DNA of 64,000 nucleotides from a phage, in assembly GCA_014816185.1 (NCBI GenBank), contig GCA_014816185.1_4095.1; one strand, given 5' to 3'. Positions 25,383 to 38,036 of the stretch are shown in pieces. Every line of letters begins with the position of its first letter. The stretch's first letter is position 1. Position numbers and translations under genes: made by a program. The notes under the pieces were generated by a model. That model ran no database searches. It saw only the letters and a program-made list of their open reading frames with translations, and was not told the DNA's origin.

Positions 25383-26049
25383 TTCAACATATAGACAGGG
25401 GAAGCTCCGCAGGGAAAGCATTGGACAGGCTTTAACATATGTTATATATGTTAAAATTCAGCCTGGACAAATGCGATCACTAGGATTCTCCCCAGGCTAA
25501 ACCCCGTAATCATATGTAGTCATAAGTAATCATATATAAACATTTAAGTAATCATTTATAATCACAGTAGTGATCAGTATTGAGTACTAGAGTGTAATAG
25601 AGTACAGGAATGTGCACGTTTAATCAAGAACGTAGCAGTACTGCCCCAAAAGTATTCAGTACTGAAGGTGGCGATATCCCACTAAGTAGGCAGAGGAAGT
25701 CTGCCGTACTTTGTAGTTTCCAAGCTCCTTTTCCATTTTGCAAATTACATCAAATGTAATCAAAAGTAATCACGCAATGATTAGTACTGAATTATTACTT
25801 TCACCTTAATTTCAATTACCCTTTTACCCTTCGGGGTAAAATTCAATTACCCCTTGAGGCTCCAGCAAAAAGTTGGTTAGTACTCCATCCTAAATCTCGA
25901 TCCTAAAAATTTTGGAGTACCTATGAAATAAAAGTTGGATCTTCGAAAGTTGAAATTTACGTTGGGACGTTTATGATTTGTGGGATATAATGATGTTTGT
26001 AGTCGGGTAGTTCTCAAGAATATCAGTACTGAAAGATGAAAGAAAGTTA

Positions 26050-26077
26050 TTGACTTTATGATTCAGTACTGTATAAT
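26050..26077 (+). promoter_or_regulatory. orphan sigma70-like promoter TTGACT-16-TATAAT (no ORF downstream)
   Basis: TTGACT 26050-26055, TATAAT 26072-26077; no ORF of 60 aa or more on plus strand until 27368. Confidence 0.4.
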
Positions 26078-26439
26078 GTTCTACATAGCTTCAAGGGGTG
26101 ATGAGTTGCTGCGAACAATTCATTTACTCTACCTCCTGTCGTGAGACAGTACAGAAAAGATAGTTCCTCCTGTGGTGGTACATCTTTTTGAACCTCATAT
26201 GAAAATCGTAATAACAGTACTGATATTAACAGAATGGTATCAGTACTGATTTTAATCTAAAGCATTATGCCACCAGCTTGTGCTGGTGGATTCCCTCTAA
26301 CAGTATTCAGTACTACATGATAGTCTTCATCCTCCTAGGGTAACATAGTGAGGGCTATGATGGCAGTACTGAATACTCCCTTTCAAAAGATAGATCTATG
26401 GTATAGTACTGACGGATTTTGGGTGTAGTTACCCTGGAT

Positions 26440-26600
26440 GGATTTTGGACGTAGATATGTCTAGCCCTCCAGAAGTCTGGAAGTAAAGATGGCTATCCAT
26501 CTAGACGGCTAAACGGCTAGATTTCTGGATGGCTGGATGGCTAGACGTTTGGACGGCTAAACGTCTAGATGGTTACACGTCTGGAAGTATAGACGGCTAA
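26440..26600. repeat. cluster of short direct repeats (iteron-like)
   Basis: repeated words CTAGACGG, GACGGCTAAAC, TCTGGAAGTA(A/T)AGA(T/C)GGCTA (two copies ~104 bp apart), tandem CTGGATGG. Confidence 0.5.
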
Positions 26601-27113
26601 ATCAAAATTTTATTTTGTTTTTTCCAATAGTTCCCCTACCGCGTGGGGATAGTTTCCCCGCAGTATCTGGAGTTAGATTTTTCTGAATCTGGAATCATTA
26701 TCTTATAAACTGGGGGCAATGTCAACGGCCTGGACGGATATTTTTAAAAATTTTTTCAGTACTGAATTTTGGGCGTAACTATGCACCCGGTGGGCTTGAG
26801 TCTTTCTCGACTTGATGGAACTATTATACAGTACTGGAAAAATAAAGCAATACCCTGGATGAAAAAAGTTTTAATTAATTTGCTTGCTATCCTGGGCCGG
26901 ACTATGGTACTATATTTCAGTACTGAGAAAGTGCGTTAACCTGCTAGGGTGCGGGAGTGTATCCTTTTTAAATTTTATGAATTTTGGACGGATCTTCCCA
27001 CCCCCTGGGGTATCCGCTTTCTCGCGTCTATGTAGTAATTATACGCTTTTTTAGTACTGAGTCAATAGCTAAAAACAAAATAATTGAAAATAATTTAACG
27101 CGTTTAAACGGCC

Positions 27114-27198
27114 TGTAACGCCCTGGATTGTTGGGAGTGGTGCAAATGTATAGCTTAGGTGTATTAATGCGTTAGAATGCGATTGAGGCCGTTTTACG
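27114..27198. repeat. inverted-repeat-bracketed segment containing CGTTAGAATGCGATTGAG motif
   Basis: AAACGGCC ... GGCCGTTT flank; motif recurs at ~33266 and ~37812. Confidence 0.35.
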
Positions 27199-27341
27199 GG
27201 GTGTAGTAGTGATTTGGTTGATTCAGTACTGAATAATAGTACTCCTATATAGAAAGATAGTTCCCCTGGATGGTTGCAGTACTGAATAATAGTACTCCTA
27301 TATAGAAAGAAAACTATTTTAAAAGTATTTGTAGAAAGTAC

Positions 27342-27401
27342 TTGCACCGTACTGATAAAAGCGTATAATGTTTTACATCGAGAGCGGGAACACTTCCCGC
27401 T
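27342..27401 (+). promoter_or_regulatory. PeSL-like cassette (early promoter + GGGAA/TTCCC stem-loop)
   Basis: TTGCAC 27342-27347, TATAAT 27364-27369, stem AGCGGGAA-cac-TTCCCGCT 27383-27401. Confidence 0.55.
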
Positions 27402-27424
27402 ACACATTAAGAGAGATTAAAACG

Positions 27425-27787
27425 ATGGCGACTCAAATCAATAAAATCATGCTTAACCTGGTAAACTTCCGCGAAGAGATGAAAGGTCTTCCGGCTGAAA
27501 CTGTAAAAATTCACATTGCAGCTTATCGGGAACTTATTGCAATGTTGCCGCTTAAGCGTGAACAATACGCCGCTACTTTGATGCTTGATTCAATGATCCA
27601 TGTAATGATCTCAAATGATTTAACGATGGTTTATCAGTACATGGGAGAAAATTTCGCGGTGTGTAGTAAGCCAGTACCAGGGATGGCAACTACTGAGGAA
27701 TTGCACGGTTTAAATTTAAAGCAAGATGCATGGGATAATATGCCTCGTTTCCTGGTATGGGCTGACAGTGGCAAAATTTACAAATAA
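27425..27787 (+). CDS. hypothetical protein
   Basis: start at ATG 27425 (MATQINK) after GAGAGA RBS; 120 aa. Confidence 0.5.
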   Translation: MATQINKIMLNLVNFREEMKGLPAETVKIHIAAYRELIAMLPLKREQYAATLMLDSMIHVMISNDLTMVYQYMGENFAVCSKPVPGMATTEELHGLNLKQDAWDNMPRFLVWADSGKIYK

Positions 27788-27801
27788 GTTTAATAAAGTA
27801 C

Positions 27802-27860
27802 TTGCATACTAAGTTAAAACAAGTATAATACTTTCTATCAGGTGGGGAATAGTTCCCCAC
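27802..27860 (+). promoter_or_regulatory. PeSL-like cassette
   Basis: TTGCAT 27802-27807, TATAAT 27824-27829, stem GTGGGGAA-tag-TTCCCCAC. Confidence 0.55.
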
Positions 27861-27879
27861 TATATAAGAGGATTAAAAA

Positions 27880-28119
27880 ATGGCTAAATCAAAAATGTTC
27901 TTAGGTCACAAAAACAAAACTCATTGGAATGTAAGCCTGTGGATTAATAACGATGAGGGATTGTATCGGTTGGCCCTGGATTTTATTAACGACAACACTA
28001 ATCGCAATGATGCGGCCCGTCATATGATGTTATTTTTAGAACAGACTGGACAAGATAAAACACCGGACGGATTCAAATATAGCACTACTGCGATCCGTGC
28101 GGCGATGGTTGGAATGTAA
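27880..28119 (+). CDS. hypothetical protein (paralog of 29918..30157)
   Basis: shares GHKNKTHWNVSLWINN..LYRLA and C-term TPDGFKYSTTAIRAAMVGM. Confidence 0.55.
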   Translation: MAKSKMFLGHKNKTHWNVSLWINNDEGLYRLALDFINDNTNRNDAARHMMLFLEQTGQDKTPDGFKYSTTAIRAAMVGM

Positions 28120-28204
28120 TAGAATTTATTTAAAGTACTATCATTTTTTGCGATAGTACTTTATAATAGTGTTTTATTCATACACCAACGATAAGGGTAA
28201 CAGC

Positions 28205-28471
28205 ATGAATATTAAGTATTTTGCGACGCGTGAACAAGCTCGGATCGCCGCACGCCAGGACGGGGCAACGTTTAAAGATATGGGCGTACAATCGGAACGT
28301 GGTAAACGTTGGGCCATTGTAAAGCGTAGTACCGCCAGATCATTACAGTACTGGTTAGCGGCCTTAAAAAGACCCGATAGTGTATCGCGACGAGTGGTAG
28401 AAATAAAGCTCGACCGAAAGGGCAACCGCGTGACCGTGTACCGTACTAAAAAGATTGCAGTACTTGAATAA
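28205..28471 (+). CDS. hypothetical protein (paralog of 41730..42125)
   Basis: start MNIKYFATRE; shares ATRE.ARI.AR..GA.FKDMG and DRKGNRVTVY. Confidence 0.55.
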   Translation: MNIKYFATREQARIAARQDGATFKDMGVQSERGKRWAIVKRSTARSLQYWLAALKRPDSVSRRVVEIKLDRKGNRVTVYRTKKIAVLE

Positions 28472-28478
28472 AAAGTAC

Positions 28479-28537
28479 TTGCAAACTATGTTTAATGGCG
28501 TATAATGTTTTACATCGAGAGCGGGAACACTTCCCGC
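28479..28537 (+). promoter_or_regulatory. PeSL-like cassette
   Basis: TTGCAA 28479-28484, TATAAT 28501-28506, stem GCGGGAA-cac-TTCCCGC. Confidence 0.55.
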
Positions 28538-28558
28538 CTATAACCTGGAGTAATAAAA

Positions 28559-28789
28559 ATGACTAATATGTATATGACTGAAGTTAAAACCGTAAAAGAT
28601 ACTACCACTAATAAAACTACTTACTTACAGCGGATCTGTGGTGTATGGCAACGTATCAGCAAATCAAAGTACTTTAAATTAACATCATATGCCAATCGTT
28701 CGGATTCATTCAGTACTGAAATAAAAGGTAATAAAGTACACCAATACGGCACTTATTATTATTATAGCCTGGACGCGATTGCAGTATAA
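28559..28789 (+). CDS. hypothetical protein
   Basis: 76-aa ORF. Confidence 0.45.
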   Translation: MTNMYMTEVKTVKDTTTNKTTYLQRICGVWQRISKSKYFKLTSYANRSDSFSTEIKGNKVHQYGTYYYYSLDAIAV

Positions 28790-29065
28790 GCAGTTTACAA
28801 ATCTTTACAATTGCCGGTATTGACTTATTTTGTCAGTACTGGCATAATGTATTCATTGGCAGATAAGCCGTAGCCCATAGGGTGCGGGAGTGTATCTATA
28901 GAAAAAGTAGTTTATTACAGTTACAATTGTGCACCCGGTGGGTTAGCTGTTGTCATGGGGTATATTATGCCAGTACTGGATAGTGCTGTCAATACCTTTT
29001 TACTATTCAGTACTGAAAACTATTTGATAAAAAGTACTTGCAAACTATGTTTAAAGGCGTATAAT

Positions 29066-29155
29066 GTTTTACATCAGGACGGGGAACGAAATAAGTAACT
29101 TCCCGTTAAGTAGCCCAGGAGTAAGGCACACGAAAAACTCCCCTGATAAAATAGT
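29066..29155 (+). ncRNA. candidate small structured RNA / long structured leader (copy 1)
   Basis: transcribed from promoter TTGCAA 29038-29043 / TATAAT 29060-29065; no ORF; ~85% identical to 40538-40614; followed by second promoter TTGACA 29156-29161 / TATAAT 29178-29183. Confidence 0.35.
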
Positions 29156-29215
29156 TTGACAAATGTTTTTAAAAGCGTATAATACTTACATCAACTACTG
29201 AATGAGGGTTACAAA

Positions 29216-29827
29216 ATGAAAACTATCACTACTACTACTTTCGTTATGGATTTTTCTGAATTGAACGCAGAACAACAAACGTCAGCTATCGAACTGGTTC
29301 GGGAACGTGAAAAAAACTTAAACGATGATTATTTTTCTGAAAGTGAAATTGAATACTATAAAGAAACAGTACTACCGGAATATGGCATTAATGACGCTGA
29401 TTTACGATTCAGTGGCTTTTGGTCCCAGGGTGACGGTGCATCAATCAGTACTGACCACGTTGACGCAGTGAAGTTTTTACGCAAGGTAAGAGCATTAACT
29501 AAGTATCGCTCAATCCGTCACCTGCTGAATGAAGATGATTTGGCGATGAGTGTAAAGCGTTCGCACTCCCACTACTCGCATGAGAACACTGTAAGCGGGT
29601 ACATTGAATCGGCTTACACTGATTTAACAGCAAAACAAGAAACGTTAGTTAATGAGCTTGAGGAACTACTCACTGACACTATTCGTGAATTGTCCCGCAA
29701 GTTGTACCGTGATTTAGAGAATGCATATGAGGATCAATTCACTACTGAAAACATTACGGCACTGATTGAGGGTAACGAATATCAATTCAATGTTATTGAT
29801 GGCGTAGTAGAATCAATCGAATATTAA
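29216..29827 (+). CDS. hypothetical protein
   Basis: 203-aa acidic protein; motif FSGFWSQGDGASIS. Confidence 0.55.
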   Translation: MKTITTTTFVMDFSELNAEQQTSAIELVREREKNLNDDYFSESEIEYYKETVLPEYGINDADLRFSGFWSQGDGASISTDHVDAVKFLRKVRALTKYRSIRHLLNEDDLAMSVKRSHSHYSHENTVSGYIESAYTDLTAKQETLVNELEELLTDTIRELSRKLYRDLENAYEDQFTTENITALIEGNEYQFNVIDGVVESIEY

Positions 29828-29839
29828 TTTAAAAAGTAC

Positions 29840-29899
29840 TTGCAAACTAAGTTTAAAAGCGTATAATACTTTATATCGAGGCGGGGAGTGGTTCCCCGC
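29840..29899 (+). promoter_or_regulatory. PeSL-like cassette
   Basis: TTGCAA 29840-29845, TATAAT 29862-29867, stem GCGGGGA-gtggt-TCCCCGC. Confidence 0.55.
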
Positions 29900-29917
29900 T
29901 CAAACGAGGATTTAAAA

Positions 29918-30157
29918 ATGGCTAGTACTAAAACTTACAACGGTCACAAAAACAAAACTCATTGGAATGTTTCCTTATGGATTAATAACGGTGAGTCATT
30001 GTATCGGCTTGCACAAAGTTGTATCGCACAAAGTAGAACTAAAGATATTGCAGCGGAATGTATGTACCGCAGATTAAAAGCCAACGGTACTACTACAACG
30101 CCGGACGGCTTTAAGTATAGCACTACTGCGATCCGTGCTGCAATGGTTGGAATGTAA
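29918..30157 (+). CDS. hypothetical protein (paralog of 27880..28119)
   Basis: start MASTKTYNGHKNKTHWNVSLWINN. Confidence 0.55.
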   Translation: MASTKTYNGHKNKTHWNVSLWINNGESLYRLAQSCIAQSRTKDIAAECMYRRLKANGTTTTPDGFKYSTTAIRAAMVGM

Positions 30158-30214
30158 TATTCAGTACTGAGATAATGGCGGGTAATAGTTCCCGCCTTTA
30201 CTGAGGGTTATCTA

Positions 30215-30502
30215 ATGAGTAAAGTAATAAAGTACAATGTGTTAAGCAAATCATTGTCTATCAGTGAATGCACCGATGGTTTTTGGCTATTTGATGAAAC
30301 GCGTGGAATGAATTTAGCTATGCGTGAGAAAACGGCTGAGGCCGCATATGTTGAGGCACTGGAATACTACCAGGAACGTTTAAAGGAAGTAGAAGAAGAT
30401 TATAAAAGCCTCAAAGCGAAAGTAGATCATTTCGTCGGTCAATTAGTGGAAGACAACGACGAGGACGGGCACTACTGCGACCGTTGCGGATCTTACAGTT
30501 AA
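30215..30502 (+). CDS. hypothetical protein
   Basis: 95 aa; C-terminal HYCDRCGSYS. Confidence 0.45.
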   Translation: MSKVIKYNVLSKSLSISECTDGFWLFDETRGMNLAMREKTAEAAYVEALEYYQERLKEVEEDYKSLKAKVDHFVGQLVEDNDEDGHYCDRCGSYS

Positions 30503-30519
30503 GTACTAAGGATTATATA

Positions 30520-30732
30520 ATGAGTGATTTAATTGAACGTATCAAAGAGCTTGAAGAAAAAGAATTGCAGTTGATCGGGTTACGGAATAAAGTATTCCAT
30601 GATTTAGGTGGCTTTATTAATGCCTGGGATAGTGGCGATCCTGATGCGTTACCTGCTAACCGCCAGGCGATGATCAATGATGTGCGTGGTGTCTTTGAGT
30701 ATGTTTTAAAAGTACTAGACACTAAGCAATAA
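30520..30732 (+). CDS. hypothetical protein
   Basis: start MSDLIERIKELEE at 30520. Confidence 0.45.
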   Translation: MSDLIERIKELEEKELQLIGLRNKVFHDLGGFINAWDSGDPDALPANRQAMINDVRGVFEYVLKVLDTKQ

Positions 30733-30793
30733 AGGCGTATAATACTTTATATTGGTACTGACAAACATTATAAGCGATTCAGGAGCTTTAATC

Positions 30794-30979
30794 ATGACAA
30801 CATTATCTGAGGTTATCCGCGAGCAAGCTGCAAAGGCTGGAATGACTGTTATCAATGTAGGGATCAAGATTGAGATCTCCCCTAACGAGTTGCAAGGGAT
30901 TCCCGATCCTACTAGCTGGGATCGTGCTGGGCGAATGATGCGTAATGCTTCATTACTGGACGGTACAAAATTTAATTAA
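30794..30979 (+). CDS. hypothetical protein
   Basis: start MTTLSEVIRE at 30794 after AGGAG. Confidence 0.45.
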   Translation: MTTLSEVIREQAAKAGMTVINVGIKIEISPNELQGIPDPTSWDRAGRMMRNASLLDGTKFN

Positions 30980-31063
30980 AAGTACTTGCAATTAGTTTTC
31001 AGTACTGTATAATGGTTTACATCAAAGGGAGAAATGGTTCTCCCTGGTAATGAGGAAAATACA

Positions 31064-31285
31064 ATGGCTAATATCACTACTCTTTCCCAACTGGAAGCAC
31101 TGGTTAAATCTATGCGGGAACATGCCGACAAAATCGGCGTACAAGATCCAGCCGTTTGCTTCTGCGACGAATTGAATGATGATACACTGGTAATAGCAGA
31201 AGTCCAGGACGTTTCTAACTATTCCTCGCGTTACACTGGCGGCGTAGCAAATAAAGGCGACTTCTGTTTATACCTTACAAAATAA
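31064..31285 (+). CDS. hypothetical protein
   Basis: start MANITTLSQ at 31064. Confidence 0.45.
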   Translation: MANITTLSQLEALVKSMREHADKIGVQDPAVCFCDELNDDTLVIAEVQDVSNYSSRYTGGVANKGDFCLYLTK

Positions 31286-31453
31286 CAACGCGGGGAGATA
31301 ATAACTCCCCGTTACTTTTTCAGTACTGAATCATTTAATAGACGGATATATGCACCCGGTGGGTTAGTGACTGTTTCGTCTTGATGTAGTAATTATGCCA
31401 GTACTGGATGCAGTTGTCAACAATTATTTTTCAAATACTTTTTATTAAAATAC

Positions 31454-31507
31454 TTGCAATTAGTTTTTAAACGCGTATAATGTTTTGCATAGGGGAGCGG
31501 TTCCCCT
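31454..31507 (+). promoter_or_regulatory. PeSL-like cassette
   Basis: TTGCAA 31454-31459, TATAAT 31476-31481, stem AGGGGA-gcggt-TCCCCT. Confidence 0.55.
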
Positions 31508-31527
31508 GGTAACTAAGGAATAAGAAA

Positions 31528-31764
31528 ATGCTCGAACAAATCAAATCAACGTCTGCGAATGTAACGGGAACGGTATCACACTTTACTAGTGATGAATCGC
31601 GTGGTGTTCCTTATTGTGCTGTACATGTAAACACTGAGGGTAACTACTGGTTTACGGTTTACGGATCATATTCATTTGGTCGGCCTGGACATCAAAAAAT
31701 CCTGGATAAAGTACAGCCAACGGGTAAAAATATCACTGCTGAAATGTTTTATAAAAAATCATAA
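31528..31764 (+). CDS. hypothetical protein
   Basis: 78-aa ORF. Confidence 0.45.
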   Translation: MLEQIKSTSANVTGTVSHFTSDESRGVPYCAVHVNTEGNYWFTVYGSYSFGRPGHQKILDKVQPTGKNITAEMFYKKS

Positions 31765-31847
31765 AGTACTTGATAATAGTTTTTAGTACTGTATAATATT
31801 TTACATCGCAAGGGGGAGCGGTTCCCCTGGTAACTAAGGATAATCAA

Positions 31848-32147
31848 ATGAAAATTGCAATCATCGCCCTGGCTTTATCTGTTTCCTCTTTCGCTGTTAA
31901 TGCGTCGTTAGATGTAAGTAGTGAAAAATTCATTCAGTGCACTGTAGCGATGACCAATGAAAGTACTGGCGAGATTGTTTTAAAGGATTTAGAGATCCAG
32001 CCAGAAGCATTTAAAAACGGGCCGTTCCATGAAGAAGACGAAAAAGGTAGCACGACAATTTATTACGATGCAAGTACTAAACGCGGTTCGGTTACTGTTA
32101 TGGATACTGAGAAAGTAACGCATTCCGGCGTTATTAATTGCCGTTGA
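31848..32147 (+). CDS. secreted/periplasmic small protein (signal peptide)
   Basis: N-terminus MKIAIIALALSVSSFAVNA then SLD, a typical Sec signal. Confidence 0.5.
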   Translation: MKIAIIALALSVSSFAVNASLDVSSEKFIQCTVAMTNESTGEIVLKDLEIQPEAFKNGPFHEEDEKGSTTIYYDASTKRGSVTVMDTEKVTHSGVINCR

Positions 32148-32168
32148 TAGATACTACGGGGTAACATC

Positions 32169-32399
32169 ATGACAGCACGAATAGTTTTACTTAACGAAAG
32201 CAGTACTACACAACTCCTTAACGCCGTGCATTATGATATTGAAACGAGCGTTAATCTTATCAGTACTGTCGTACTGTTGGACACTGGAAAGGTCGCCAAT
32301 GATAAAGCGATTGCAGGTATACTAACGGATCTTGAGCCTGGTAGCAGTGCATCAATAACGTTAAATGGTAAAGTGTTTAACATTTTACTTACTGATTAA
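32169..32399 (+). CDS. hypothetical protein
   Basis: 76-aa ORF. Confidence 0.45.
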   Translation: MTARIVLLNESSTTQLLNAVHYDIETSVNLISTVVLLDTGKVANDKAIAGILTDLEPGSSASITLNGKVFNILLTD

Positions 32400-32405
32400 G
32401 TACAT

Positions 32406-32431
32406 AGCCCACCTGGTGGGCTTTTTTGTTT
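32406..32431 (+). terminator. intrinsic terminator
   Basis: GCCCA-cctgg-TGGGC followed by TTTTTTGTTTTT. Confidence 0.6.
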
Positions 32432-32632
32432 TTATAGTATCGTAGTACTGAGATACTTTGAAAATAGTTTTAAGAAAGTAGTTGACATTACCACAGAAAA
32501 GCGTAGAATGTATTACATCAAGACGGGGAGCACTAAGTAGACCGCCAGTAAGTCGAACGAAAAACTGGACACGTCGAGAAAACTTTGATACACTAATAAA
32601 CGTAAACTAAACTTTAATTGAGGATTTATAAA

Positions 32633-33115
32633 ATGGCTAATGTAAAATCATTCATCAAAGCACTGGTAGCAAATGAAACTAACGTCGCGGCTGAGATCCT
32701 GGCTGAACTGGATAACGATACCATGAAAGCGGTACGCAATAATTTTAACATCGCGTACAGTACTGCGAAAGAACTACAAGCAAATAAAGCGGCAGAAATT
32801 GAAGCGGCAAAGGCGGCCCGTGAAGCAGAACTACAAGCAACAATCGAAAGTATTCAGGCGGCAGTAGTTGGATTGGATCTGGAAGTAGTTACAGAGATGG
32901 CACAAAAAGCCCTGGCGGTTAAGTATGGGGAAGACAAGCCAGAAGTAAAAGCCAAAAAATGGATTCAGGAACGCGTAGCGGTAGTACTGGACAACGGGGA
33001 AGAATATCTGATTCCGGTGCGTGGTAACTGCATTGCGGTAGTACTGGATGCGATTAACTCCAGTGGTATGACTCGCGAGGAATGGATCGAAGCTCATCGC
33101 AAAGTTGAAGCATAA
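32633..33115 (+). CDS. hypothetical protein
   Basis: start MANVKSFIKA at 32633; Ala/Glu-rich helical middle. Confidence 0.5.
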   Translation: MANVKSFIKALVANETNVAAEILAELDNDTMKAVRNNFNIAYSTAKELQANKAAEIEAAKAAREAELQATIESIQAAVVGLDLEVVTEMAQKALAVKYGEDKPEVKAKKWIQERVAVVLDNGEEYLIPVRGNCIAVVLDAINSSGMTREEWIEAHRKVEA

Positions 33116-33136
33116 CAATTAAAGTACTGAATCACT

Positions 33137-33165
33137 AGCCCACTGTATAAGTGGGCTTTTTTGTG
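33137..33165 (+). terminator. intrinsic terminator
   Basis: AGCCCAC-tgtataa-GTGGGCT followed by TTTTTTGTG. Confidence 0.6.
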
Positions 33166-33389
33166 TTTATCGTTTACCAGGCCACCAGCACCGCCTAGAA
33201 TCGATTCTAACGCATTAAACTGATTATCTGATGCATTGCCCTAGCTGGTGGCGTTAAGGTCGTTAGAATGCGATTGAGAGCGTTTAAAGTATTTTGCAAA
33301 AAGTAATAAAAAGTACTTGCACGATTAAGAGATTAGCGTATAATTAATTACATCAAGGCGAGACACCTTAACTAACTGAGGATATAAAG

Positions 33390-33542
33390 ATGAATACTTA
33401 TGAACTGGATTGTTTTACTTTACAAGTAATGTCAGTATGCAGTAAGAAAGATTGGTCATCAAAGGAATTTAAAGCAGTTATCGCGTGTGCAAAACACGGC
33501 AAGACTATCAATGAAACGGCATCAATCATTGATAAACTTTAA
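33390..33542 (+). CDS. small protein (50 aa)
   Basis: MNTYELDCF..; below track threshold; preceded by promoter-like TTGCAC..TATAAT. Confidence 0.35.
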   Translation: MNTYELDCFTLQVMSVCSKKDWSSKEFKAVIACAKHGKTINETASIIDKL

Positions 33543-33550
33543 AAAATAGT

Positions 33551-33579
33551 TTGACAATAGTTTTAAGTACTGGCATAAT
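33551..33579 (+). promoter_or_regulatory. early-type promoter TTGACA-17-CATAAT
   Basis: TTGACA 33551-33556, CATAAT 33574-33579. Confidence 0.45.
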
Positions 33580-33611
33580 ACATACATCAACTACTGAATA
33601 GGAATTAAAAA

Positions 33612-33839
33612 ATGGCTATTATCATTACTCGCGTATCTGGTACTACTGGCAACGAACAAGTAGTTGCAGTCATTACCAACAAGGAAGGTGCGGAATTGCA
33701 AAATGCAATGAATACCTGGGCCGTTAATGAGTTCGGTCAGTGGGCAAGTGTAGCATACATTGAAACCTATCAAGTGCCGTCGATTAGTTTAACTGATTTG
33801 GGCGTTGAGCGTATCCTTTGCCTTGATGAATTAAATTAA
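33612..33839 (+). CDS. hypothetical protein
   Basis: 75 aa MAIIITRVSG. Confidence 0.5.
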   Translation: MAIIITRVSGTTGNEQVVAVITNKEGAELQNAMNTWAVNEFGQWASVAYIETYQVPSISLTDLGVERILCLDELN

Positions 33840-33924
33840 AAAAGTACTTGCAAAGTAAATCGAATAAAGTATAATACATTACATCAAGGGGAGAAATGGT
33901 TCTCCCCACTACAAGGAAACTAAA

Positions 33925-34068
33925 ATGAAAACTTGTCAATGTGGTCAGAAATCTATTACGGGTTTAAAGCGGGGCGTTGCACTTTGCCAGTACCATTATA
34001 ATTTACAAGTATGGGGTAAAGAATGGGCCGACCAGGTGGAAGCAGCAAAGAAAGAAAAAAGTAAGTAA
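33925..34068 (+). CDS. small Cys-containing protein (47 aa)
   Basis: MKTCQCGQKS..ALCQYHY; read from sequence. Confidence 0.35.
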   Translation: MKTCQCGQKSITGLKRGVALCQYHYNLQVWGKEWADQVEAAKKEKSK

Positions 34069-34087
34069 AAATATTATCACAGTACTA

Positions 34088-34116
34088 TTGACATAGTTTG
34101 ATAGTACTGGCATAAT
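34088..34116 (+). promoter_or_regulatory. early-type promoter TTGACA-17-CATAAT (copy 1 of 70-bp direct repeat)
   Basis: 34065-34135 nearly identical to 34359-34429, including the 3' codons of the preceding gene. Confidence 0.45.
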
Positions 34117-34149
34117 AGATTTTATCAAGACAACTAAGGGGAAACAATA

Positions 34150-34362
34150 ATGGCTATCATTACTAAAATCAAAGTTAACAAGACTATCGTTAAACTGGCA
34201 GAAGTGAAAGAAGGTTATAAAGTATCTTGGTGCGGTATGTATCGGACGTTCGCAGATATAGATGATGCAATCAATTACTACACTGACACGGTTAAAAACT
34301 TTGTTCGTGCTGATGTGGTTATGGCAGTGGCAACATATAAAGCAGCGAAAGAAAGTAAGTAA
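34150..34362 (+). CDS. hypothetical protein
   Basis: 70 aa MAIITKIKVNK. Confidence 0.5.
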   Translation: MAIITKIKVNKTIVKLAEVKEGYKVSWCGMYRTFADIDDAINYYTDTVKNFVRADVVMAVATYKAAKESK

Positions 34363-34381
34363 AAATATTATCACAGTACTA

Positions 34382-34410
34382 TTGACATAGTTTGATAGTA
34401 CTGGCATAAT
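34382..34410 (+). promoter_or_regulatory. early-type promoter TTGACA-17-CATAAT (copy 2 of direct repeat)
   Basis: TTGACA 34382-34387, CATAAT 34405-34410. Confidence 0.45.
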
Positions 34411-34453
34411 AGATTTTATCAAGACGACACATATTAATTTAAGGAATACTAAA

Positions 34454-34777
34454 ATGGCTAAAACTATCATCAACACCGTTTCCCTGGCTGCAATCCGTGC
34501 AATCAATGTTGACGGTAAACGTTGGTCTGATTCATATGGCAATACTTATCATTCTTGTCATGTAAGCGTTGAACTGGATAACGGTTTGAATGATCTGGCG
34601 GTTGAATCATTTACTTATGGCTATGAAGATGCATATCAACAAACGGCGTTTGATCTCTTAAAGGAATCAGTAGACGGGCTTGATACTATTGAAACCTCCC
34701 TTACTCGTTTATGTAATGATTTGTCTATCCCGTTGCATTGTACTGTACAGGATGTAAAACGTAAAAAAGATCTTTAA
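34454..34777 (+). CDS. hypothetical protein (paralog of 41311..41634)
   Basis: shares RW.DS.GNTYHSC.VS, FTYGY and C-term VKRKKD. Confidence 0.55.
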   Translation: MAKTIINTVSLAAIRAINVDGKRWSDSYGNTYHSCHVSVELDNGLNDLAVESFTYGYEDAYQQTAFDLLKESVDGLDTIETSLTRLCNDLSIPLHCTVQDVKRKKDL

Positions 34778-34857
34778 TTAGCTTTACTTTATGCAGATAC
34801 TTTGGTACAGTGTCTGCATAGGGGAAAGAAATTAAATTAACTTAAGAGGATCGTATA

Positions 34858-35127
34858 ATGAAAAATATCAGTACTTTAATCGACGCAGGTACACATGTTC
34901 GGCGGTCTATGGTTGCAACCAGTACTACAAAACAAGTAGCGAGCGGTTATCTTGTATTTGTGCACGATGGTAAACTCCTGGAACGTTCAATCAATTTTGA
35001 TGTTAAAAACAATTGCCGTTTTATTATCTTTAAGCGTGAACAATATAAAATCGATTTGCCAGCAAAGCCCATTAGCGGGGCGTACAACGTGCAATCATTG
35101 TTTGAGCGTCAACCTTACACCTATTAA
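34858..35127 (+). CDS. hypothetical protein
   Basis: 89-aa ORF. Confidence 0.45.
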   Translation: MKNISTLIDAGTHVRRSMVATSTTKQVASGYLVFVHDGKLLERSINFDVKNNCRFIIFKREQYKIDLPAKPISGAYNVQSLFERQPYTY

Positions 35128-35178
35128 TCAAAACATCGTTAGCGGTCGTTTTAGGCCGCTTATATTGGGGATTATACC

Positions 35179-35451
35179 ATGAACGTTAATCAAGTACTGA
35201 ATGAGATCGAAAGCATCATTAAACCGATGAAGCGTACTGATGCTATGTTAACACCGGAAGAATGCCGCCTTTATGAGCGTTACAGCGTCGAACAAGTCCA
35301 GGCAATGGCTATGGCTACCCCAGCCGTTAAACCGCCTGAGAATGCGTTACAGGACGTTACAGGGGATTATATCATCAATCCAGTACTAGGGAAGATGGCG
35401 GCAATCACCGAAGATCAACAAGACTACTTAAGCCAGTACTTAAAAGGTTAA
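35179..35451 (+). CDS. hypothetical protein
   Basis: 90-aa ORF. Confidence 0.45.
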   Translation: MNVNQVLNEIESIIKPMKRTDAMLTPEECRLYERYSVEQVQAMAMATPAVKPPENALQDVTGDYIINPVLGKMAAITEDQQDYLSQYLKG

Positions 35452-35456
35452 TTAAT

Positions 35457-35666
35457 ATGCTTACTGTACAGGATAAGATCGACATCTTAAAGGTTAATAT
35501 GTATGTGATTGATGCAGTACCTGGGAAAGTATTTGCATACGATGACACCACTGTAAGCGATTTCTACTATAGCCAGGACGTGGGGGATCTTTCTGTACAG
35601 TCGGTTATTGAAAACGTAGTTAATGCAGCGTATGAGCATTTACTTTCAAATAGTACTTGCAATTAG
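35457..35666 (+). CDS. hypothetical protein
   Basis: 69-aa ORF. Confidence 0.45.
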   Translation: MLTVQDKIDILKVNMYVIDAVPGKVFAYDDTTVSDFYYSQDVGDLSVQSVIENVVNAAYEHLLSNSTCN

Positions 35667-35735
35667 TTTTTAAACGCGTATAATGTTTTACATGAAGGGG
35701 AAAAATGATTCTCCCCACTAATTAAGGAATATGAA

Positions 35736-35882
35736 ATGAAAGCATCAAAAAAGAGTACTAACAAGAAAGCACGTTCAACCTTAGATGGGGTATTCCCTTT
35801 ACGTTTCGTTGATGAAGTGGTTTCCTACCCGCCTGGCCTTACTCCTGAGATGGTAGAAAGTTTGCGTAAATCTAAAAAATAG
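35736..35882 (+). CDS. small basic protein (48 aa)
   Basis: MKASKKSTNKKAR.. after PeSL stem-loop and AAGGA. Confidence 0.35.
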   Translation: MKASKKSTNKKARSTLDGVFPLRFVDEVVSYPPGLTPEMVESLRKSKK

Positions 35883-35963
35883 TACTTGCAATTAGTTTTT
35901 AGTACTGTATAATAGTTTACATGAAGGGGAGAAATGTTTCTCCCCAATAACAGGAGAAACAAA

Positions 35964-36116
35964 ATGAAACAATACAACGCTCGGTTTGATGTTACTATCG
36001 GTAACGGCAAAGGTCAATTCTCTTTCAGTACTCGCCGCAGTTATACAGAAAACTTCCTGCGTAATTGTGCACTGACCGCCGCACAAATTAAACATTACTT
36101 TCAGGCTAAAAAATGA
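35964..36116 (+). CDS. small protein (50 aa)
   Basis: start MKQYNARFDV at 35964 after PeSL and AGGAGA. Confidence 0.4.
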   Translation: MKQYNARFDVTIGNGKGQFSFSTRRSYTENFLRNCALTAAQIKHYFQAKK

Positions 36117-36202
36117 GATCATTAGCTTATTACAGTTCGGCCCTGGTCGGTGCATTGATCGCGGCGTTGTTAGTAACCTATCTATTCTTTATGGTGATTT
36201 AA
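36113..36202 (+). CDS. putative 29-aa hydrophobic peptide
   Basis: MRSLAYYSSALVGALIAALLVTYLFFMVI; ATGA overlap with upstream gene. Confidence 0.25.
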   Translation: MRSLAYYSSALVGALIAALLVTYLFFMVI

Positions 36203-36346
36203 ATGAATCCAACAGGTTTAAACTATAAAAGTTGTTCGGCGTTTACGAAAGCAAATAAAGCGAATGCACGTAAAGCGAAAGTACAGGAATACATCAAGCA
36301 AGGCATGACGCGAAAGGCGGCGATTCTAAAAGCTAAAAATAAATGA
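36203..36346 (+). CDS. putative small basic protein (47 aa)
   Basis: MNPTGLNYKS..; TAAATG junction. Confidence 0.25.
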   Translation: MNPTGLNYKSCSAFTKANKANARKAKVQEYIKQGMTRKAAILKAKNK

Positions 36347-36351
36347 AAAAA

Positions 36352-36445
36352 GTGGTTGACTCCGGTCAGCCATTTTGCTATTATATATTCATTGAGAGAT
36401 AGCTCACTAGCCCACAGGGTGCAGGAGTGTATCTATTGTATAATG
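36352..36445 (+). promoter_or_regulatory. composite element: UUCG-type hairpin/promoter + conserved CCCACAGGGTGCA segment
   Basis: related copies at 40379, 43645, 46399. Confidence 0.5.
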
Positions 36446-36488
36446 TTTGAGTACTGAAAACTATTTTAAAGTATTTGATAAAAAGTAC

Positions 36489-36548
36489 TTGCAAACTATC
36501 TCAATAGGCGTATAATGTTTTACATCGAAAGGGGAAACGGTTTCCCCT
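36489..36548 (+). promoter_or_regulatory. PeSL-like cassette
   Basis: TTGCAA 36489-36494, TATAAT 36511-36516, stem AGGGGAAA-cgg-TTTCCCCT. Confidence 0.55.
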
Positions 36549-36567
36549 GGTAATAAGGAAACAAATC

Positions 36568-36909
36568 ATGACTATTGCAATTGCTCAATCTAACTTTGAA
36601 AATGAAATCATCGCTCAGACACTGCGTTTAAGTGATGGTCGGGCCGAAATTAATTACGGTTTCAATTCAGGCGGTTGTGAAAAATATCAGTACTTTGTAA
36701 CGGCTGATGGCGGTGTCCTGGGTATCAATACAGTTATTGTAAACATCCAGAAAATTAATTTCAATGATCCAGACGATAGCCAGTTTTACATCACTGGCGT
36801 AGACGTGAACTATGAGGATGACTCACTAACTGATGACCACACTGGCGAGAAGTTAGAAAGTGCATACGGTGAAGATGATTATCAGTCCGGTCCAGAAGAT
36901 TTCGAATAA
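36568..36909 (+). CDS. hypothetical acidic protein
   Basis: 113-aa ORF. Confidence 0.5.
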   Translation: MTIAIAQSNFENEIIAQTLRLSDGRAEINYGFNSGGCEKYQYFVTADGGVLGINTVIVNIQKINFNDPDDSQFYITGVDVNYEDDSLTDDHTGEKLESAYGEDDYQSGPEDFE

Positions 36910-37004
36910 TATAAAAAAAATAGTTTGACAATAGATTATAGTACTGTATAATAGTTTACATCAAGGGGAGAAAAACTTCTCCCCACTAACAGAGAGAAAA
37001 CAAA

Positions 37005-37217
37005 ATGGCTAATATCCGGTCGAAATTAAAAAATGCAAAACAAGTTTTATTTTCAGATCATGAATACTTTAATAAAGATATTACAGGAGTTACAAGTATC
37101 AAGGAAGTAAAAGAAAAAACCGGCGTTTTGTGTGATGTGCGATTAGTTGGAACATTTGGGAATAACGTGCTATATCGCTGTGGTGATTACAATTTTACAC
37201 TGACTATCATTAACTAA
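37005..37217 (+). CDS. hypothetical protein
   Basis: 70-aa ORF. Confidence 0.45.
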   Translation: MANIRSKLKNAKQVLFSDHEYFNKDITGVTSIKEVKEKTGVLCDVRLVGTFGNNVLYRCGDYNFTLTIIN

Positions 37218-37310
37218 AAATATTATCACAGTACTATCAAAGCTATTGACAATGATTGATAGTACTGGCATAATAAGTTTTATCAACTACACTACTAAGG
37301 AATTAAAAAA

Positions 37311-37490
37311 ATGGCTATCATCGCAAAAACTGAAATCGTTGGTCTGGATTCTATCATCATGACGTTTGAAGATCAAAAAGGTATGTATGTAGTTTCCTAT
37401 GGTGATTATGTTCGGGAGTATGAAACGGTAGACGAAGCCTTTGAAAGTTACATTCGCCAGGTGAATAAAGCATACGACGATTACCGCTAA
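37311..37490 (+). CDS. small protein (59 aa), MAII-type
   Basis: MAIIAKTEIVG..; N-terminus like 33612 and 34150. Confidence 0.4.
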   Translation: MAIIAKTEIVGLDSIIMTFEDQKGMYVVSYGDYVREYETVDEAFESYIRQVNKAYDDYR

Positions 37491-37589
37491 AATATATTAC
37501 CAGTACTATTAAATATATTGACAACGTTTGATAGTACTGTATAATAAGTTTTATAAACAGTAGTTAACTTAACCTAAGAGAGAAACAAA

Positions 37590-37733
37590 ATGATCGCACT
37601 GGATTCATTCATCGACGCAGTACTGGCAAAAACTGGCGAGGATCTGACCGCAGAACAATACGCAATGATCGAGCAATGCCAGCAAGACGGTAAATCGGTG
37701 AAAGATACTGTTAAGATTATCCGCAAGATGTAA
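37590..37733 (+). CDS. small protein (47 aa)
   Basis: MIALDSFIDAVLAK.. after AGAGAGA RBS. Confidence 0.35.
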   Translation: MIALDSFIDAVLAKTGEDLTAEQYAMIEQCQQDGKSVKDTVKIIRKM

Positions 37734-37832
37734 GATTATAGCCCACTGGTTAACGCTGGTGGGCTTTAATTCATTACCCTATACAATGCCAGTACTAAAC
37801 CGTTTATCTCGTTAGAATGCGTTACAGGACGT

Positions 37833-38036
37833 TTGACAATGATTAGCATGAAATCAGTACAAAAACAAATAGAAACATTATCAAAAATTAAACGTAAACA
37901 GTACTCGTTAGAATATACAATCAATGGTAACTATCATCTAATGAAAGAGAATAATTTCATTGTCATTGATGAATCATTGCAAGTTATTAGTATAGTACTG
38001 AAAGCATTAATCAATGACAGAAAAAAATTAAAATAA
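37833..38036 (+). CDS. hypothetical protein
   Basis: 67-aa ORF. Confidence 0.4.
   Translation: MTMISMKSVQKQIETLSKIKRKQYSLEYTINGNYHLMKENNFIVIDESLQVISIVLKALINDRKKLK

Follow-up and report, generated by a model that had tools for sequence, protein, structure and literature searches.

Why should a jumbo phage genome that is otherwise packed with coding sequence carry two kilobases of DNA without a gene? The stretch analyzed here (the window; 64,000 nt of contig GCA_014816185.1_4095.1, GenBank assembly GCA_014816185.1) has such a gap at positions 25383-27424, and the ORFs neighboring it encode small proteins of 60 to 140 aa. A first-pass annotation made from the sequence had described the gap as free of ORFs and of tRNA genes, and both descriptions hold: on the plus strand the longest ORFs of 25383-27424 reach 56 aa, from TTG start codons, ARAGORN reports 0 tRNA or tmRNA genes in the 64-kb window, and Rfam has no tRNA match even at E-values up to 10. 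No gene lies inside the gap; its right limit had been placed at 27420, and the first real gene begins with an ATG at 27425. Judged by sequence, the source phage is an Asteriusvirus, a jumbo coliphage of the PBECO4/121Q type, and phage records matching the interval number 44 (87 to 97% identity), 34 of which cover at least 80% of it. Three roles had been suggested for the gap, namely a replication origin, a packaging or recombination hotspot, and a small-RNA locus, and it is the second that proved right; the gap contains the left virion end, between 25684 and 25685, the first 1.74 kb of a direct terminal repeat (DTR), and a pair of Chi sites. An unannotated gap common to at least 34 deposited genomes becomes in this way a defined feature.

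The assignment of the interval to a genome terminus is solid by homology, and is based on the end positions of relatives transferred to the window at 96 to 99% identity. The records of fEgEco12, vB_Ec-M-J, BF17, E9.1, CRJP21, and ELP-22 all start, base-exact, at window position 25685, and the end of the G17 record, which is in the reverse orientation, is a seventh end at the same position; the starts of G17 and WPEC3, also in reverse orientation, both map to 47900. With seven record ends at 25685 and two at 47900, the left genome end falls inside the interval, and the DTR extends from 25685 to 47900. The vB_Ec-M-J record is annotated with 'Direct Terminal Repeats 1-21525', and the CBB record also annotates a terminal repeat. 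The fEgEco12 termini come from PhageTerm together with restriction digests, with a repeat of 20,993 bp, and the Sharanji terminal repeat is 20,668 bp. The first bases of fEgEco12 are present again at position 353,741 of its 374,733-bp record, and the sequence at the right end of its repeat is identical to the right boundary in the window. We note that some deposited records were perhaps oriented by copying earlier ones; this is countered by the opposite orientation of G17, and by Muenster and CBB, which are of other genera and from other laboratories.

The cut sites themselves have recognizable sequences (a slash marks the cut). The left motif, GATATSCCACTA/AGT-N9-AAGTC, is common to Asteriusvirus and RaK2/Muenster and is conserved in part in CBB (CCGCTA/TAT-N9-AAGTC), and the right motif, CT/TAGC with GTATTAC downstream, is common to three genera, including Muenster and CBB; the Muenster ends were determined independently by PhageTerm, and those of CBB by read depth and PFGE. 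Unique end positions, the same sequence at both ends, and a conserved boundary motif are all found by homology, as for fixed ends with a DTR in packaging of the T7/T5 type. Homology to these phages thus shows the concatemer to be cut by terminase between 25684 and 25685, in GATATCCCACTA/AGT-N9-AAGTC, giving the left virion end, and shows a second fixed cut between 47900 and 47901 (CT/TAGC), giving the right virion end; with both positions fixed, 25685-27424 would be the outermost 1.74 kb of packaged DNA, at both ends. How terminal repeats of tens of kilobases are duplicated and cut is poorly understood, and the two motifs are concrete terminase substrates, as well as conserved marks by which the genome ends and the 22.2-kb DTR are annotatable by sequence alone in Asteriusvirus and related genera.

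A gene-free leader of 1.3 to 1.8 kb is also present at the left ends of Muenster, pEa_SNUABM_12, XbC2, and CBB. It is highly probable that unique DNA meets the left edge of the DTR of this Asteriusvirus phage within the interval, and that the leader is a set of cis-acting signals (Table 1) and not a collection of decayed genes. A gene-free terminal region is of a known kind in principle, and several of the conserved signals in this leader are previously undescribed. They would include the recognition sequence of the cut site together with flanking repeats; GTAATCA occurs five times in the region and six times in the rest of the window, and as three of the five copies lie outside the cut (Table 1) and two inside the DTR (25756 and 25766), the word brackets the cut site.

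Table 1. Features of the gene-free interval and of the terminal repeat that begins within it (window coordinates; a slash within a sequence marks a cut)
Feature	Coordinates	Strand	Details
Long imperfect palindrome	25398..25494	.	DNA fold -23.3 kcal/mol, z = -4.5; weak hairpin-type Rfam matches on both strands
GTAATCA repeats outside the cut	25506..25561	+	Copies at 25506, 25526, 25548; TRF periods 10 to 22
Left terminase cut site	25673..25701	+	GATATCCCACTA/AGTAGGCAGAGGAAGTC; cut between 25684 and 25685 = left physical genome end and DTR start
Direct terminal repeat (DTR), whole	25685..47900	+	22,216 bp; right boundary ...GGCTAAAGGGCGGGTAACCT/TAGCGACTTCG
Hairpin GGCAGA-ggaag-TCTGCC	25689..25705	.	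4 nt inside the end; includes the conserved AAGTC
Conserved block, inverted repeat	25880..25920	.	GTACTCCA-N25-TGGAGTAC; column identity 0.96-0.98
Strong rightward sigma-70 promoter	26050..26077	+	TTGACT-16-TATAAT; 1.35 kb without ORF downstream
Predicted structured leader RNA, candidate small RNA	26084..26255	+	From the 26050 promoter; fold prediction
Palindromic Chi pair	26270..26289	.	CCACCAGC-ttgt-GCTGGTGG; 586 nt from left end
Tandem array of ~20 octamers	26434..26601	+	Unit CTRGAYGK; CTGGATGG, CTAGACGG, CTAAACGG, TTGGACGG and similar
IHF-like site with T-run, box, and hairpin	26602..26668	.	IHF-like site and T-run 26600-26623, box CCAATAGTTCCCCTACCGCG 26624-26643, hairpin 26643-26661, then GCAGTATC; from alignment, folds, IHF pattern
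Leftward sigma-70 promoter	26697..26725	-	TTGACA-17-GATAAT, 11/12; column identity 0.94-0.96
Weaker rightward promoter-like site	26884..26969	+	TTGCTA-18-TACTAT, TG before second hexamer; then terminator-like hairpin and T-run 26946-26969
Leftward sigma-70 promoter	27038..27065	-	TTGACT-16-TATAAT, 11/12; ACCCC/GGGGT stem-loop downstream
Two perfect 34-nt direct repeats	27224..27310	+	27224-27257 and 27277-27310; two AGTACT sites each
Promoter of first DTR gene	27342..27424	+	TTGCAC-16-TATAAT, AAGTAC before it; 5'-UTR hairpin CGGGAAcacTTCCCG 27385-27399, ribosome-binding site; start codon 27425

The closest known anatomy is that of the T7 left end, where nt 1-925 hold the terminal repeat, an array of CCTAAAG short repeats, the leftward host promoter A0, phiOL, the host promoters A1-A3, and gene 0.3. 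In both phages terminase cuts concatemers to produce an end of fixed sequence, and both have a leader of roughly 1 kb that is free of genes, a short G/A-rich unit in tandem array near the end, a host promoter facing the end, and strong host promoters facing the early genes. In the window this layout is seen in the octamer array, the leftward promoters at 26725 and 27065, and the rightward promoter at 26050, but the likeness is one of layout only, with different units and no sequence homology. In T7 the repeat measures 160 bp, and the array, with a 13-bp period, is found mostly just outside it, whereas the Asteriusvirus array has an 8-bp period and lies 750 to 920 nt inside a far longer repeat. 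We know of no relationship between T7 and the Asteriusvirus phage. CTAAAG also occurs just inside the Asteriusvirus right cut site and may be compared with the CCTAAAG unit of T7.

End-facing Chi sites form a further component of the leader, and their clustering near phage genome ends has precedent in P1 and in the lambdoid phage LLS and its relatives (PMC12315714). The Chi pair is present in all closely related genomes fetched, with its loop inverted (ACAA) in EC.P1 and BF17, and a RecBCD enzyme that enters at the left end would meet its CCACCAGC member in the active orientation, according to the Chi orientation rule (PMC12315714). The more distant EJP2 retains CCACCAGC only, A4 lacks both octamers, and the leaders of Muenster, pEa12, and CBB do not have the pair. 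On the plus strand of the window, GCTGGTGG is found at nine sites, all of them in the DTR and with unrelated flanks, where octamers of equal composition average 0.43; the opposite orientation has two sites within the DTR, one of them that of the leader pair. Chi is also enriched in 121Q and RaK2. Over-representation, clustering near the ends, and orientation bias are all seen here, and as in P1 and LLS it is the exact E. coli Chi that is strongly over-represented, within or close to the terminal repeat, and in the orientation that RecBCD would read on coming in from the ends. The Asteriusvirus sites differ in that one pair forms a perfect palindrome in a non-coding leader, and in the literature searched there is no report of Chi clustering in jumbo or RaK2-like phages. 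The sequence GCTGGATGG was also considered as a Chi-like site, and was dropped because it has a one-base insertion relative to Chi.

As we infer them from sequence, the functions of Chi, promoters, and array in the leader would combine as follows. The left-facing Chi at +586 and the nine right-end-facing Chi in the DTR would switch RecBCD that enters at either end from degradation to RecA loading, which would favor repeat-by-repeat recombination and so, we propose, the formation of circles or concatemers; DNA outside Chi would then be dispensable, in keeping with the absence of genes from it. Chi sites that face the ends are a hint that these jumbo phages rely on host RecBCD to join their repeats, a matter of consequence for host range and phage therapy. 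T7 encodes a RecBCD inhibitor, and no Chi sites were found in the 1 kb of T7 that was examined. The strong rightward host-type promoter, 366 nt from the end, would make a structured non-coding RNA and aim RNA polymerase into the early genes, and two strong host-type promoters would aim back at the genome end, the transcript from the nearer of them (26697..26725) crossing the hairpin and the octamer array. The orientation-specific array, followed by the conserved box and hairpin, is the weakest of these assignments, a putative protein-binding signal that could act in end processing, packaging, or DNA entry.

The short direct repeats previously noted at 26440-26600 are real and are better seen as one tandem array with an 8-bp period (TRF periods 8, 16, and 24; period-8 self-identity 0.61). 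The copy number of the array varies among relatives in steps of 8, and the array is found at two places in every record that carries both copies of the repeat. The element to its right is kept in four genera, with the hairpin stem exchanged via compensating changes, and IHF-like and Fur-like patterns each occur once in the interval, which is unremarkable. CTRGAYGK arrays are also found in Eneladusvirus, Mimasvirus, T5-like, and T7-like phages, and in the T5-like and T7-like phages they sit within the terminal repeats. In Muenster, Fur-box-like repeats replace the array, so it is not indispensable to the whole group. Complete E. coli genomes have no match to the array, a scan of GTDB genomes gave, among the matches listed, only unrelated repeats in Gemmatimonadales and Anaerolineae, an IMG/VR pattern scan for CTAGA octamer arrays gave uninformative, heterogeneous short arrays in uncultivated contigs, and a literature search by sequence strings gave only unrelated primer matches. 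A reading of the array as a CsrA sponge, prompted by its GGA motifs, was dropped because the T5-like arrays are mostly CTAGAYGK and lack GGA.

Tentatively, as a reading that is less likely than not, we propose that the array is a common cis signal of genome ends. Three lineages of terminal-repeat phages that infect Gammaproteobacteria and are not related to one another (RaK2-like jumbo phages, T5-like Demerecviridae, and the T7-like Ermolevavirus) would have acquired it or converged on it because of a single shared factor or step that it engages, for example a host protein, the entry of DNA, or the processing of ends. To our knowledge the terminases of T7-like, T5-like, and RaK2-like phages are unrelated, which argues against the array as a terminase-specific site. 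That T5-like and T7-like phages also have it suggests a step at DNA ends that these phages have in common and, were the proposal true, the array and end-facing Chi would constitute a previously unrecognized 'terminal leader' module, controlling what becomes of the DNA that reaches the cell first.

The T5 left terminal repeat, with its untranslated Repeat Regions 1-3 and injection stop signal (Davison 2020 preprint, doi 10.1101/866236), offers another comparison. Like the Asteriusvirus leader, it has more than 1 kb of strongly conserved gene-free DNA, full of repeats both direct and inverted, within a long terminal repeat whose genes are the first to be expressed, and T5-like phages of Aeromonas, Vibrio, and Providencia have the same CTRGAYGK array in the terminal repeat. 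The T5 region, however, is at the inner edge of the repeat and has paired DnaA boxes and IRD'-spacer-IRC' inverted repeats, whereas the Asteriusvirus leader is at the outer edge, and the DnaA-box pattern TTWTNCACA has no match in 25383-27420. T5 itself has no octamer array, its DRD repeats being TGTGCAAATCCGACA. We know of no two-step DNA transfer among RaK2-like phages.

Of the other readings, the one that survives best is that the leader is primarily a small-RNA locus, producing an RNA of about 170 nt from the 26050 promoter, one of about 50 nt from 26884-26969, and leftward RNAs. The orphan promoter at 26050-26077 was correctly recognized in the first-pass annotation (11 of 12 matches), and both of its hexamers are kept in eight genomes, including that of EJP2 at 77% identity; the leader holds three promoter sites with 11 of 12 matches, compared to 0.1 in shuffles. 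Downstream, the 217-nt segment 26084-26300 folds at -69.1 kcal/mol (z = -5.35), and the candidate RNA has an invariant CUGUC-GUGA-GACAG hairpin and a terminator-like 14-bp hairpin formed by two CAGTACTG arms (26215-26248) with a weak U-tract after it. Both-sided changes are seen in 9 of its 51 predicted pairs, although this covariation comes from five sequences, effectively just EJP2 and A4. EJP2 has the second unit, which would yield the ~50-nt RNA, in identical form; in RaK2/Muenster its conservation is about 70%, and there the terminator (hairpin 26946-26965) is not conserved although the block around it is, and the U-tracts of both terminators are weak. No Rfam family matches the interval at the gathering score (best E-value, 0.69), and relaxing the threshold to an E-value of 10 gives chance-level matches only, for example to plant miRNA and lncRNA families. 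A small-RNA role is possible for the predicted transcript from the 26050 promoter, and we consider it unlikely that small RNAs are the primary role of the leader, a reading that leaves unexplained the fixed DNA end, the Chi pair, and a DNA-level octamer array common to unrelated phages.

Slightly less probable is a replication origin in the leader, either promoter-primed (of the R-loop type, like T4 oriF/oriG or that near T7 phiOL) or an iteron origin with initiator-bound repeats. A strong orphan promoter does precede a G-rich array, with an AT/T-rich stretch (26600-26623) also downstream of it, and T7 has a secondary origin near its left end. The label 'iteron-like' given earlier to the repeats is not supported, however, as the units are tandem and of 8 bp, not iterons of 17 to 22 bp spaced by helical turns, there is no DnaA box in the region, and no recognized initiator gene is adjacent; only the T-rich stretch at 26604-26623 fits an iteron origin. 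A GC-skew plot, proposed earlier as a check, has a sign change and a cumulative minimum at ~25.0-25.5 kb, less than 700 nt from the start of the interval and near the terminus, but this signal is confounded because the gene family and the G+C content (0.33 to 0.39) also change at the repeat boundary. Moreover, T7-like and T5-like phages also carry the array at their ends, and their main origins lie elsewhere (checked for T5).

It is also improbable that the leader is a graveyard in which early genes have decayed and promoter-stem-loop cassettes have been left behind, made tolerable by the duplication of terminal DNA, with the cut site as its sole function. Such decay could account for the short non-conserved ORFs, for recurring words such as ATAGTTCCCC, which are halves of the 5'-UTR hairpins of real genes, and for ORF-less promoter/hairpin cassettes in both orientations. 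The cassettes are indeed present, as the first-pass annotation had it in calling them PeSL-like, but the connection is one of resemblance only. PeSL promoter-stem-loop cassettes of T4-type phages were reportedly described by Arbiol et al. in 2010, and the likeness is that of a sigma-70 early promoter followed by a short G+C-rich hairpin before many small early genes (27342-27399, and upstream of the gene at 27880); the Asteriusvirus cassettes differ in having AGTACT in or adjoining the promoter. The leftward cassette at 27038..27065 is of this type, has no ORF, and is kept in RaK2/Muenster as TTGATA-16-TATAAT. Against decay, the region is kept at full length in 34 to 35 genomes, and its column identity of 80 to 100%, reached although the leader ORFs are not conserved, is as good as or above that of neighboring DNA (~88-89% around the DTR right boundary, window versus fEgEco12). 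The array, the box and hairpin, the leftward promoter cassette, and the block at 25880-25920 are, moreover, conserved across genera that share little other DNA.

That a missed tRNA cluster or protein gene fills the gap is hardly tenable, since it is favored only by the gap itself and by short hypothetical CDSs annotated here in some records, while, besides the ARAGORN and Rfam results above, the leader ORFs of at least 35 aa are all broken in relatives (except two within a stretch too invariant to inform) and the conserved block aligned across genera has indels of 1, 6, and 11 nt, not all multiples of 3, for which reasons the protein-coding reading was rejected. The sole long ORF (112 aa, minus strand, 27069-27407) carries a frameshift or an interruption in 7 of 7 relatives compared, and the only IMG/VR relative of the first repeat gene is 121Q. 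An apparent 1.1-kb insertion in some relatives is an artefact, in which a second BLAST piece matches the downstream promoter repeat.

With the leader read as a set of cis-acting signals, several smaller elements can be placed in and around it. The long palindrome at 25398..25494 is just past the last upstream gene (which ends at 25382) and 190 to 290 nt outside the left cut; it probably serves as the upstream operon's terminator, and a role as a concatemer-processing hairpin is speculative. The block at 25880..25920 has a tandem duplicate in EJP2 and a related sequence near the XbC2 end. A segment previously described as bracketed by two words does have AAACGGCC at 27106-27113 and GGCCGTTT at 27187-27194, but the enclosed sequence folds no better than shuffles (z = -1.0). 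The repeated CCTGGA words noted earlier are borne out, with 6 in the region and 14 in the rest of the plus strand, a 12.6-fold enrichment. The enrichment of AGTACT palindromes is likewise real (282 sites in the window versus 21.6 expected, or 13-fold), but is not specific to the interval, being a trait of the whole early region: AGTACT occurs 10.3 times per kb in the leader, 10.8 in the other non-coding DNA of the DTR, and 8.5 in the small genes upstream.

The ORF-free interval at 25383-27420 is best described by reference to the ends of related Asteriusvirus genomes. The fEgEco12 genome is reported to be linear and 374,733 bp long with direct terminal repeats (DTRs) of 20,993 bp, as determined by PhageTerm and confirmed by restriction digests (fEgEco12 paper), and Sharanji has a repeat of 20,668 bp. 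Base 1 of the fEgEco12 record is 25685 here and recurs at 353,741 of the same record; the records of vB_Ec-M-J (annotated 'Direct Terminal Repeats 1-21525'), BF17, E9.1, CRJP21, and ELP-22 start base-exactly at the same position, and the G17 record, deposited in the opposite orientation, ends there base-exactly. The G17 and WPEC3 records start at 47900, and the sequence at the fEgEco12 repeat end is the same as that at 47900. These record ends place the repeat at 25685-47900 (22,216 bp), and the interval comprises 302 nt of unique DNA followed by the first 1.74 kb of the repeat. The presence of a single repeat copy with unique DNA on both flanks indicates a collapsed or circularly arranged assembly, a form in which the genome end is invisible. 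Comparison of these sequences provides good support for the interval being the terminal non-coding leader of a DTR jumbo phage, including the left terminase cut site. The packaging or recombination candidate of the first-pass annotation is supported: the interval contains the left genome end, as located in homologues, and a Chi pair with a putative role in recombination. Terminal non-coding leaders are already known as a kind of feature. The Asteriusvirus papers searched give repeat lengths and say nothing of non-coding or intergenic DNA, and the clustering of Chi and the octamer array shared across lineages, both presented below, appear to be undescribed so far.

Conservation of the cut sites extends beyond the genus, to Alcyoneusvirus (RaK2/Muenster, ends by PhageTerm) and Mimasvirus (CBB, ends by read depth and PFGE). 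Reading from outside to inside, RCTA/AG (slash, cut) is present at five of six boundaries, an observation rather than a proven recognition rule. The records of pEa_SNUABM_12 (Eneladusvirus) and XbC2 (Mimasvirus) begin in matching register, with AAGTC at nt 13-17. GTAATCA repeats flank the left cut on both sides.

The interval is non-coding by several measures. There is no plus-strand ORF of at least 60 codons, as originally noted, and the longest is 56 aa from 25383 to the next gene, which has a real start codon at 27425. The sole long ORF, a minus-strand one of 112 aa, is frameshifted or interrupted in seven relatives, as are the other ORFs of at least 35 aa, except two in an over-invariant and uninformative stretch. 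At 87-97% identity, the interval has matches in 44 phage records; these are all from jumbo phages of the Asteriusvirus type (PBECO4, 121Q, G17, phAPEC6, and others), and in 34 of them at least 80% of the query is covered; the homologous stretch in all annotated relatives has no CDS or just scattered short 'hypothetical' CDSs. The suggestion that this is not a tRNA cluster also holds, with no tRNA predicted by ARAGORN in the 64 kb, and a search of the interval against Rfam gave no matches at the gathering score and just chance-level ones at E values up to 10. Column-by-column identity across the leader (25685-27424) is 80 to 100% among eight Asteriusvirus genomes. CDS annotation begins at 1304 in Muenster, at 1793 in pEa_SNUABM_12, and at 1726 in XbC2, and CBB has two short hypothetical CDSs alone before 1800 (20-187 and 1427-1615); these annotations make the gene-free left-end leader a trait of the group.

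Among known systems, the closest analogy in layout is the T7 left end, in which a terminal repeat and a CCTAAAG array (13-bp period) with the leftward host promoter A0 inside it are followed by A1-A3, which are strong host promoters, with the first gene at 925. The untranslated repeat regions of T5 are similar in kind, being large, conserved, repeat-rich, and located in a long terminal repeat. What defines the T5 injection stop signal, however, is paired DnaA boxes at the repeat's inner edge, and the leader has neither feature. The strong promoter predicted at 26050-26077 is confirmed as a rightward match at 11 of 12 consensus positions, with both hexamers kept even in the diverged relative EJP2. 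The 217 nt that follow it fold far below shuffles (z = -5.35), and the predicted leader RNA has a few compensatory changes (five sequences only). Three 11/12 promoter sites are present in the leader versus 0.1 in shuffles, and the leftward one at 27065 is kept in RaK2/Muenster together with its downstream stem-loop. The proposed AAACGGCC/GGCCGTTT bracket is present but has no significant structure. We note that in EJP2 a 39-bp unit, TAAATCCCGATCCTAAAAATTTTGGAGTACCAACGAAAT, is tandemly duplicated in the region aligned to 25880-25925, which belongs to the leader's best-conserved block.

Features of the leader, the repeat, and related genomes (slash, cut)
Feature	Genome	Position	Strand	Remarks
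Long imperfect palindrome	This phage	25398-25494		Outside left cut; fold z = -4.5
Left cut, outside/inside	This phage	25684/25685		GATATCCCACTA/AGTAGGCAGAGGAAGTC
Left cut, outside/inside	RaK2/Muenster			GATATGCCACTA/AGTCCGTTTATAAAGTC
Left cut, outside/inside	CBB			CCTTCCGCTA/TATCCGTTCCTGAAGTC
Right cut, inside/outside	This phage	47900/47901		...CTAAAGGGCGGGTAACCT/TAGCGAC...GGTATTAC
Right cut, inside/outside	Muenster			...AGGCT/TAGCAC...GTATTAC
Right cut, inside/outside	CBB			...AACGCT/TAGCGAG...GGTATTAC
Hairpin	This phage	25689-25705		Carries AAGTC
Near-invariant block	This phage	25880-25920		8-bp inverted repeat; duplicated in EJP2
Chi, GCTGGTGG	This phage	26282, 33244, 37755, 39216, 40464, 42810, 44710, 46287, 46511	+	
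Chi, opposite orientation, within repeat	This phage	26270, 33182		26270 is 586 nt from left end
Predicted leftward promoters	This phage	26725-26697, 27065-27038	-	Each 11/12
Two perfect 34-nt repeats	This phage	27224, 27277		
First repeat gene's promoter, 5'-UTR hairpin, ribosome-binding site	This phage	Inner end of leader		
Octamer array	Mimasvirus CBB	About 680-830		Inside annotated 'redundant repeat'
Octamer array	Mimasvirus XbC2	Near record start		
Octamer array	Eneladusvirus: pEa_SNUABM phages, Serratia BF, Yersinia fHe-Yen9	Near record start		
Octamer array	Rak2-like GAP32	3466-3628 of record		
Octamer array	T5-like Demerecviridae, Aeromonas AhSzq-1			Adjoins A1/A2 genes
Octamer array	T5-like Demerecviridae, Providencia PR1	About 9620-9690		Terminal repeat annotated 1-10461
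Octamer array	T5-like Demerecviridae, Vibrio pVp-1	Mid-record		
Octamer array	T5-like Demerecviridae, Thalassavirus phages	At or near record start		
Octamer array	T7-like Ermolevavirus PGT2	nt 41-115 from left end		

All nine plus-strand Chi octamers in the window are inside the repeat, with unrelated flanks, against a mean count of 0.43 over 168 octamers of the same composition, and enrichment is alike in 121Q and RaK2. This orientation is readable by RecBCD from the right end, and Chi clusters at or near terminal repeats have precedents in P1 and the lambdoid phage LLS (PMC12315714). The outermost pair forms a perfect palindrome, CCACCAGC-ttgt-GCTGGTGG (26270-26289), whose 4-nt loop is TTGT in some isolates and the inverted ACAA in EC.P1 and BF17; the whole palindrome is thus inverted between close relatives, as expected from hairpin- or cruciform-mediated flipping. 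We infer that RecBCD entering from either end would be turned into a RecA loader within the repeat, which would favor repeat-by-repeat recombination, and the DNA lying outside Chi would be dispensable, as would suit a gene-free terminal stretch; the roles of the promoters, the leader RNA and, above all, the octamer array are likewise putative. Three further CCACCAGC octamers (10015, 10273, and 10528) lie inside one minus-strand ORF (9957-10694), are GCTGGTGG on its coding strand, and look like repetitive, possibly Gly-rich coding sequence. A 19-mer, GCGTTAGAATGCGATTGAG, at 27169-27187 is found again with one mismatch 6 kb off at 33260-33278, adjoining the Chi at 33244, and its inverted partner is near the opposite-orientation Chi at 33182.

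The cluster of short direct repeats in the first-pass annotation is genuine, and is a tandem array of about 20 octamers (approximately CTRGAYGK, 8-bp period) at 26434-26601; the repeated CCTGG(A) words are real as well, with CCTGGA and CTGGAYGG concentrated in the interval on the plus strand only. An iteron-type replication origin is not supported. The GC-skew plot does have a minimum near 25.0-25.5 kb, but this is confounded, since the repeat boundary is also where gene family and base composition change. The array is characterized by its orientation specificity, near-end placement, and copy-number variation by slippage, all of which are firm; copy number between relatives differs by multiples of 8. 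The array is followed by a T-run, a box (CCAWTAGYTCCCCTWCCGCG), and a hairpin that are kept in four genera, with the stem swapped among them (GGGG/CCCC, CTAG/CTAG, CTGG/CCAG, and AGGG/CCCT). Sensitive BLAST searches with the interval or the array alone place an array of identical unit and period in several other lineages, at two places per record wherever both repeat copies are present. It is absent from T5 itself, E. coli genomes gave no matches to it, and no description was found in the searchable literature. Fur-box-like repeats stand at its position in Muenster; RaK2 and Muenster have about five copies of this repeat, GATAATGATTCTCATT (about 790-930 of Muenster), with another after the conserved block at about 1300 of Muenster. 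A GTDB scan with a degenerate three-unit octamer pattern has many Gemmatimonadales and Anaerolineae MAG contigs among the matches listed, often several per genome, and these look like an unrelated interspersed repeat family.

The abundance of AGTACT palindromes is real (282 sites versus 21.6 expected in the window, a 13-fold excess) but not specific to the interval, where sites occur at 10.3 per kb, as often as in other non-coding DNA nearby and only slightly more often than within the small genes upstream. Sites are densest at 20-47 kb, in coding and non-coding early DNA alike, with almost none at 48-52 and 56-63 kb; RaK2 has 136 in 20.6 kb. The flanks are only weakly constrained (C before, G after). 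In gene promoters, sites of the subclass AAAGTACTTGCA overlap the -35 element, and those of a second subclass, CAGTACTGTATAAT, lie directly against the -10 element. The SlmA site, GTGAGTACTCAC, has the AGTACT core in common. Upstream of the terminus, 20580-25382 contains about 25 tandem small plus-strand ORFs of 59 to 78 aa, many clearly paralogous (e.g., MN.EHKEFY..HLS...), in a run broken by one 219-aa ORF; GC skew is negative (-0.1 to -0.33) and A content high, and at the repeat boundary both GC skew and G+C shift in sign or level. Directly past the right boundary, small plus-strand ORFs that overlap one another form another run (47968-about 54000; 66 to 115 aa, mostly 66 to 90 aa). AGTACT is almost missing from this run, suggesting that its expression class is different.
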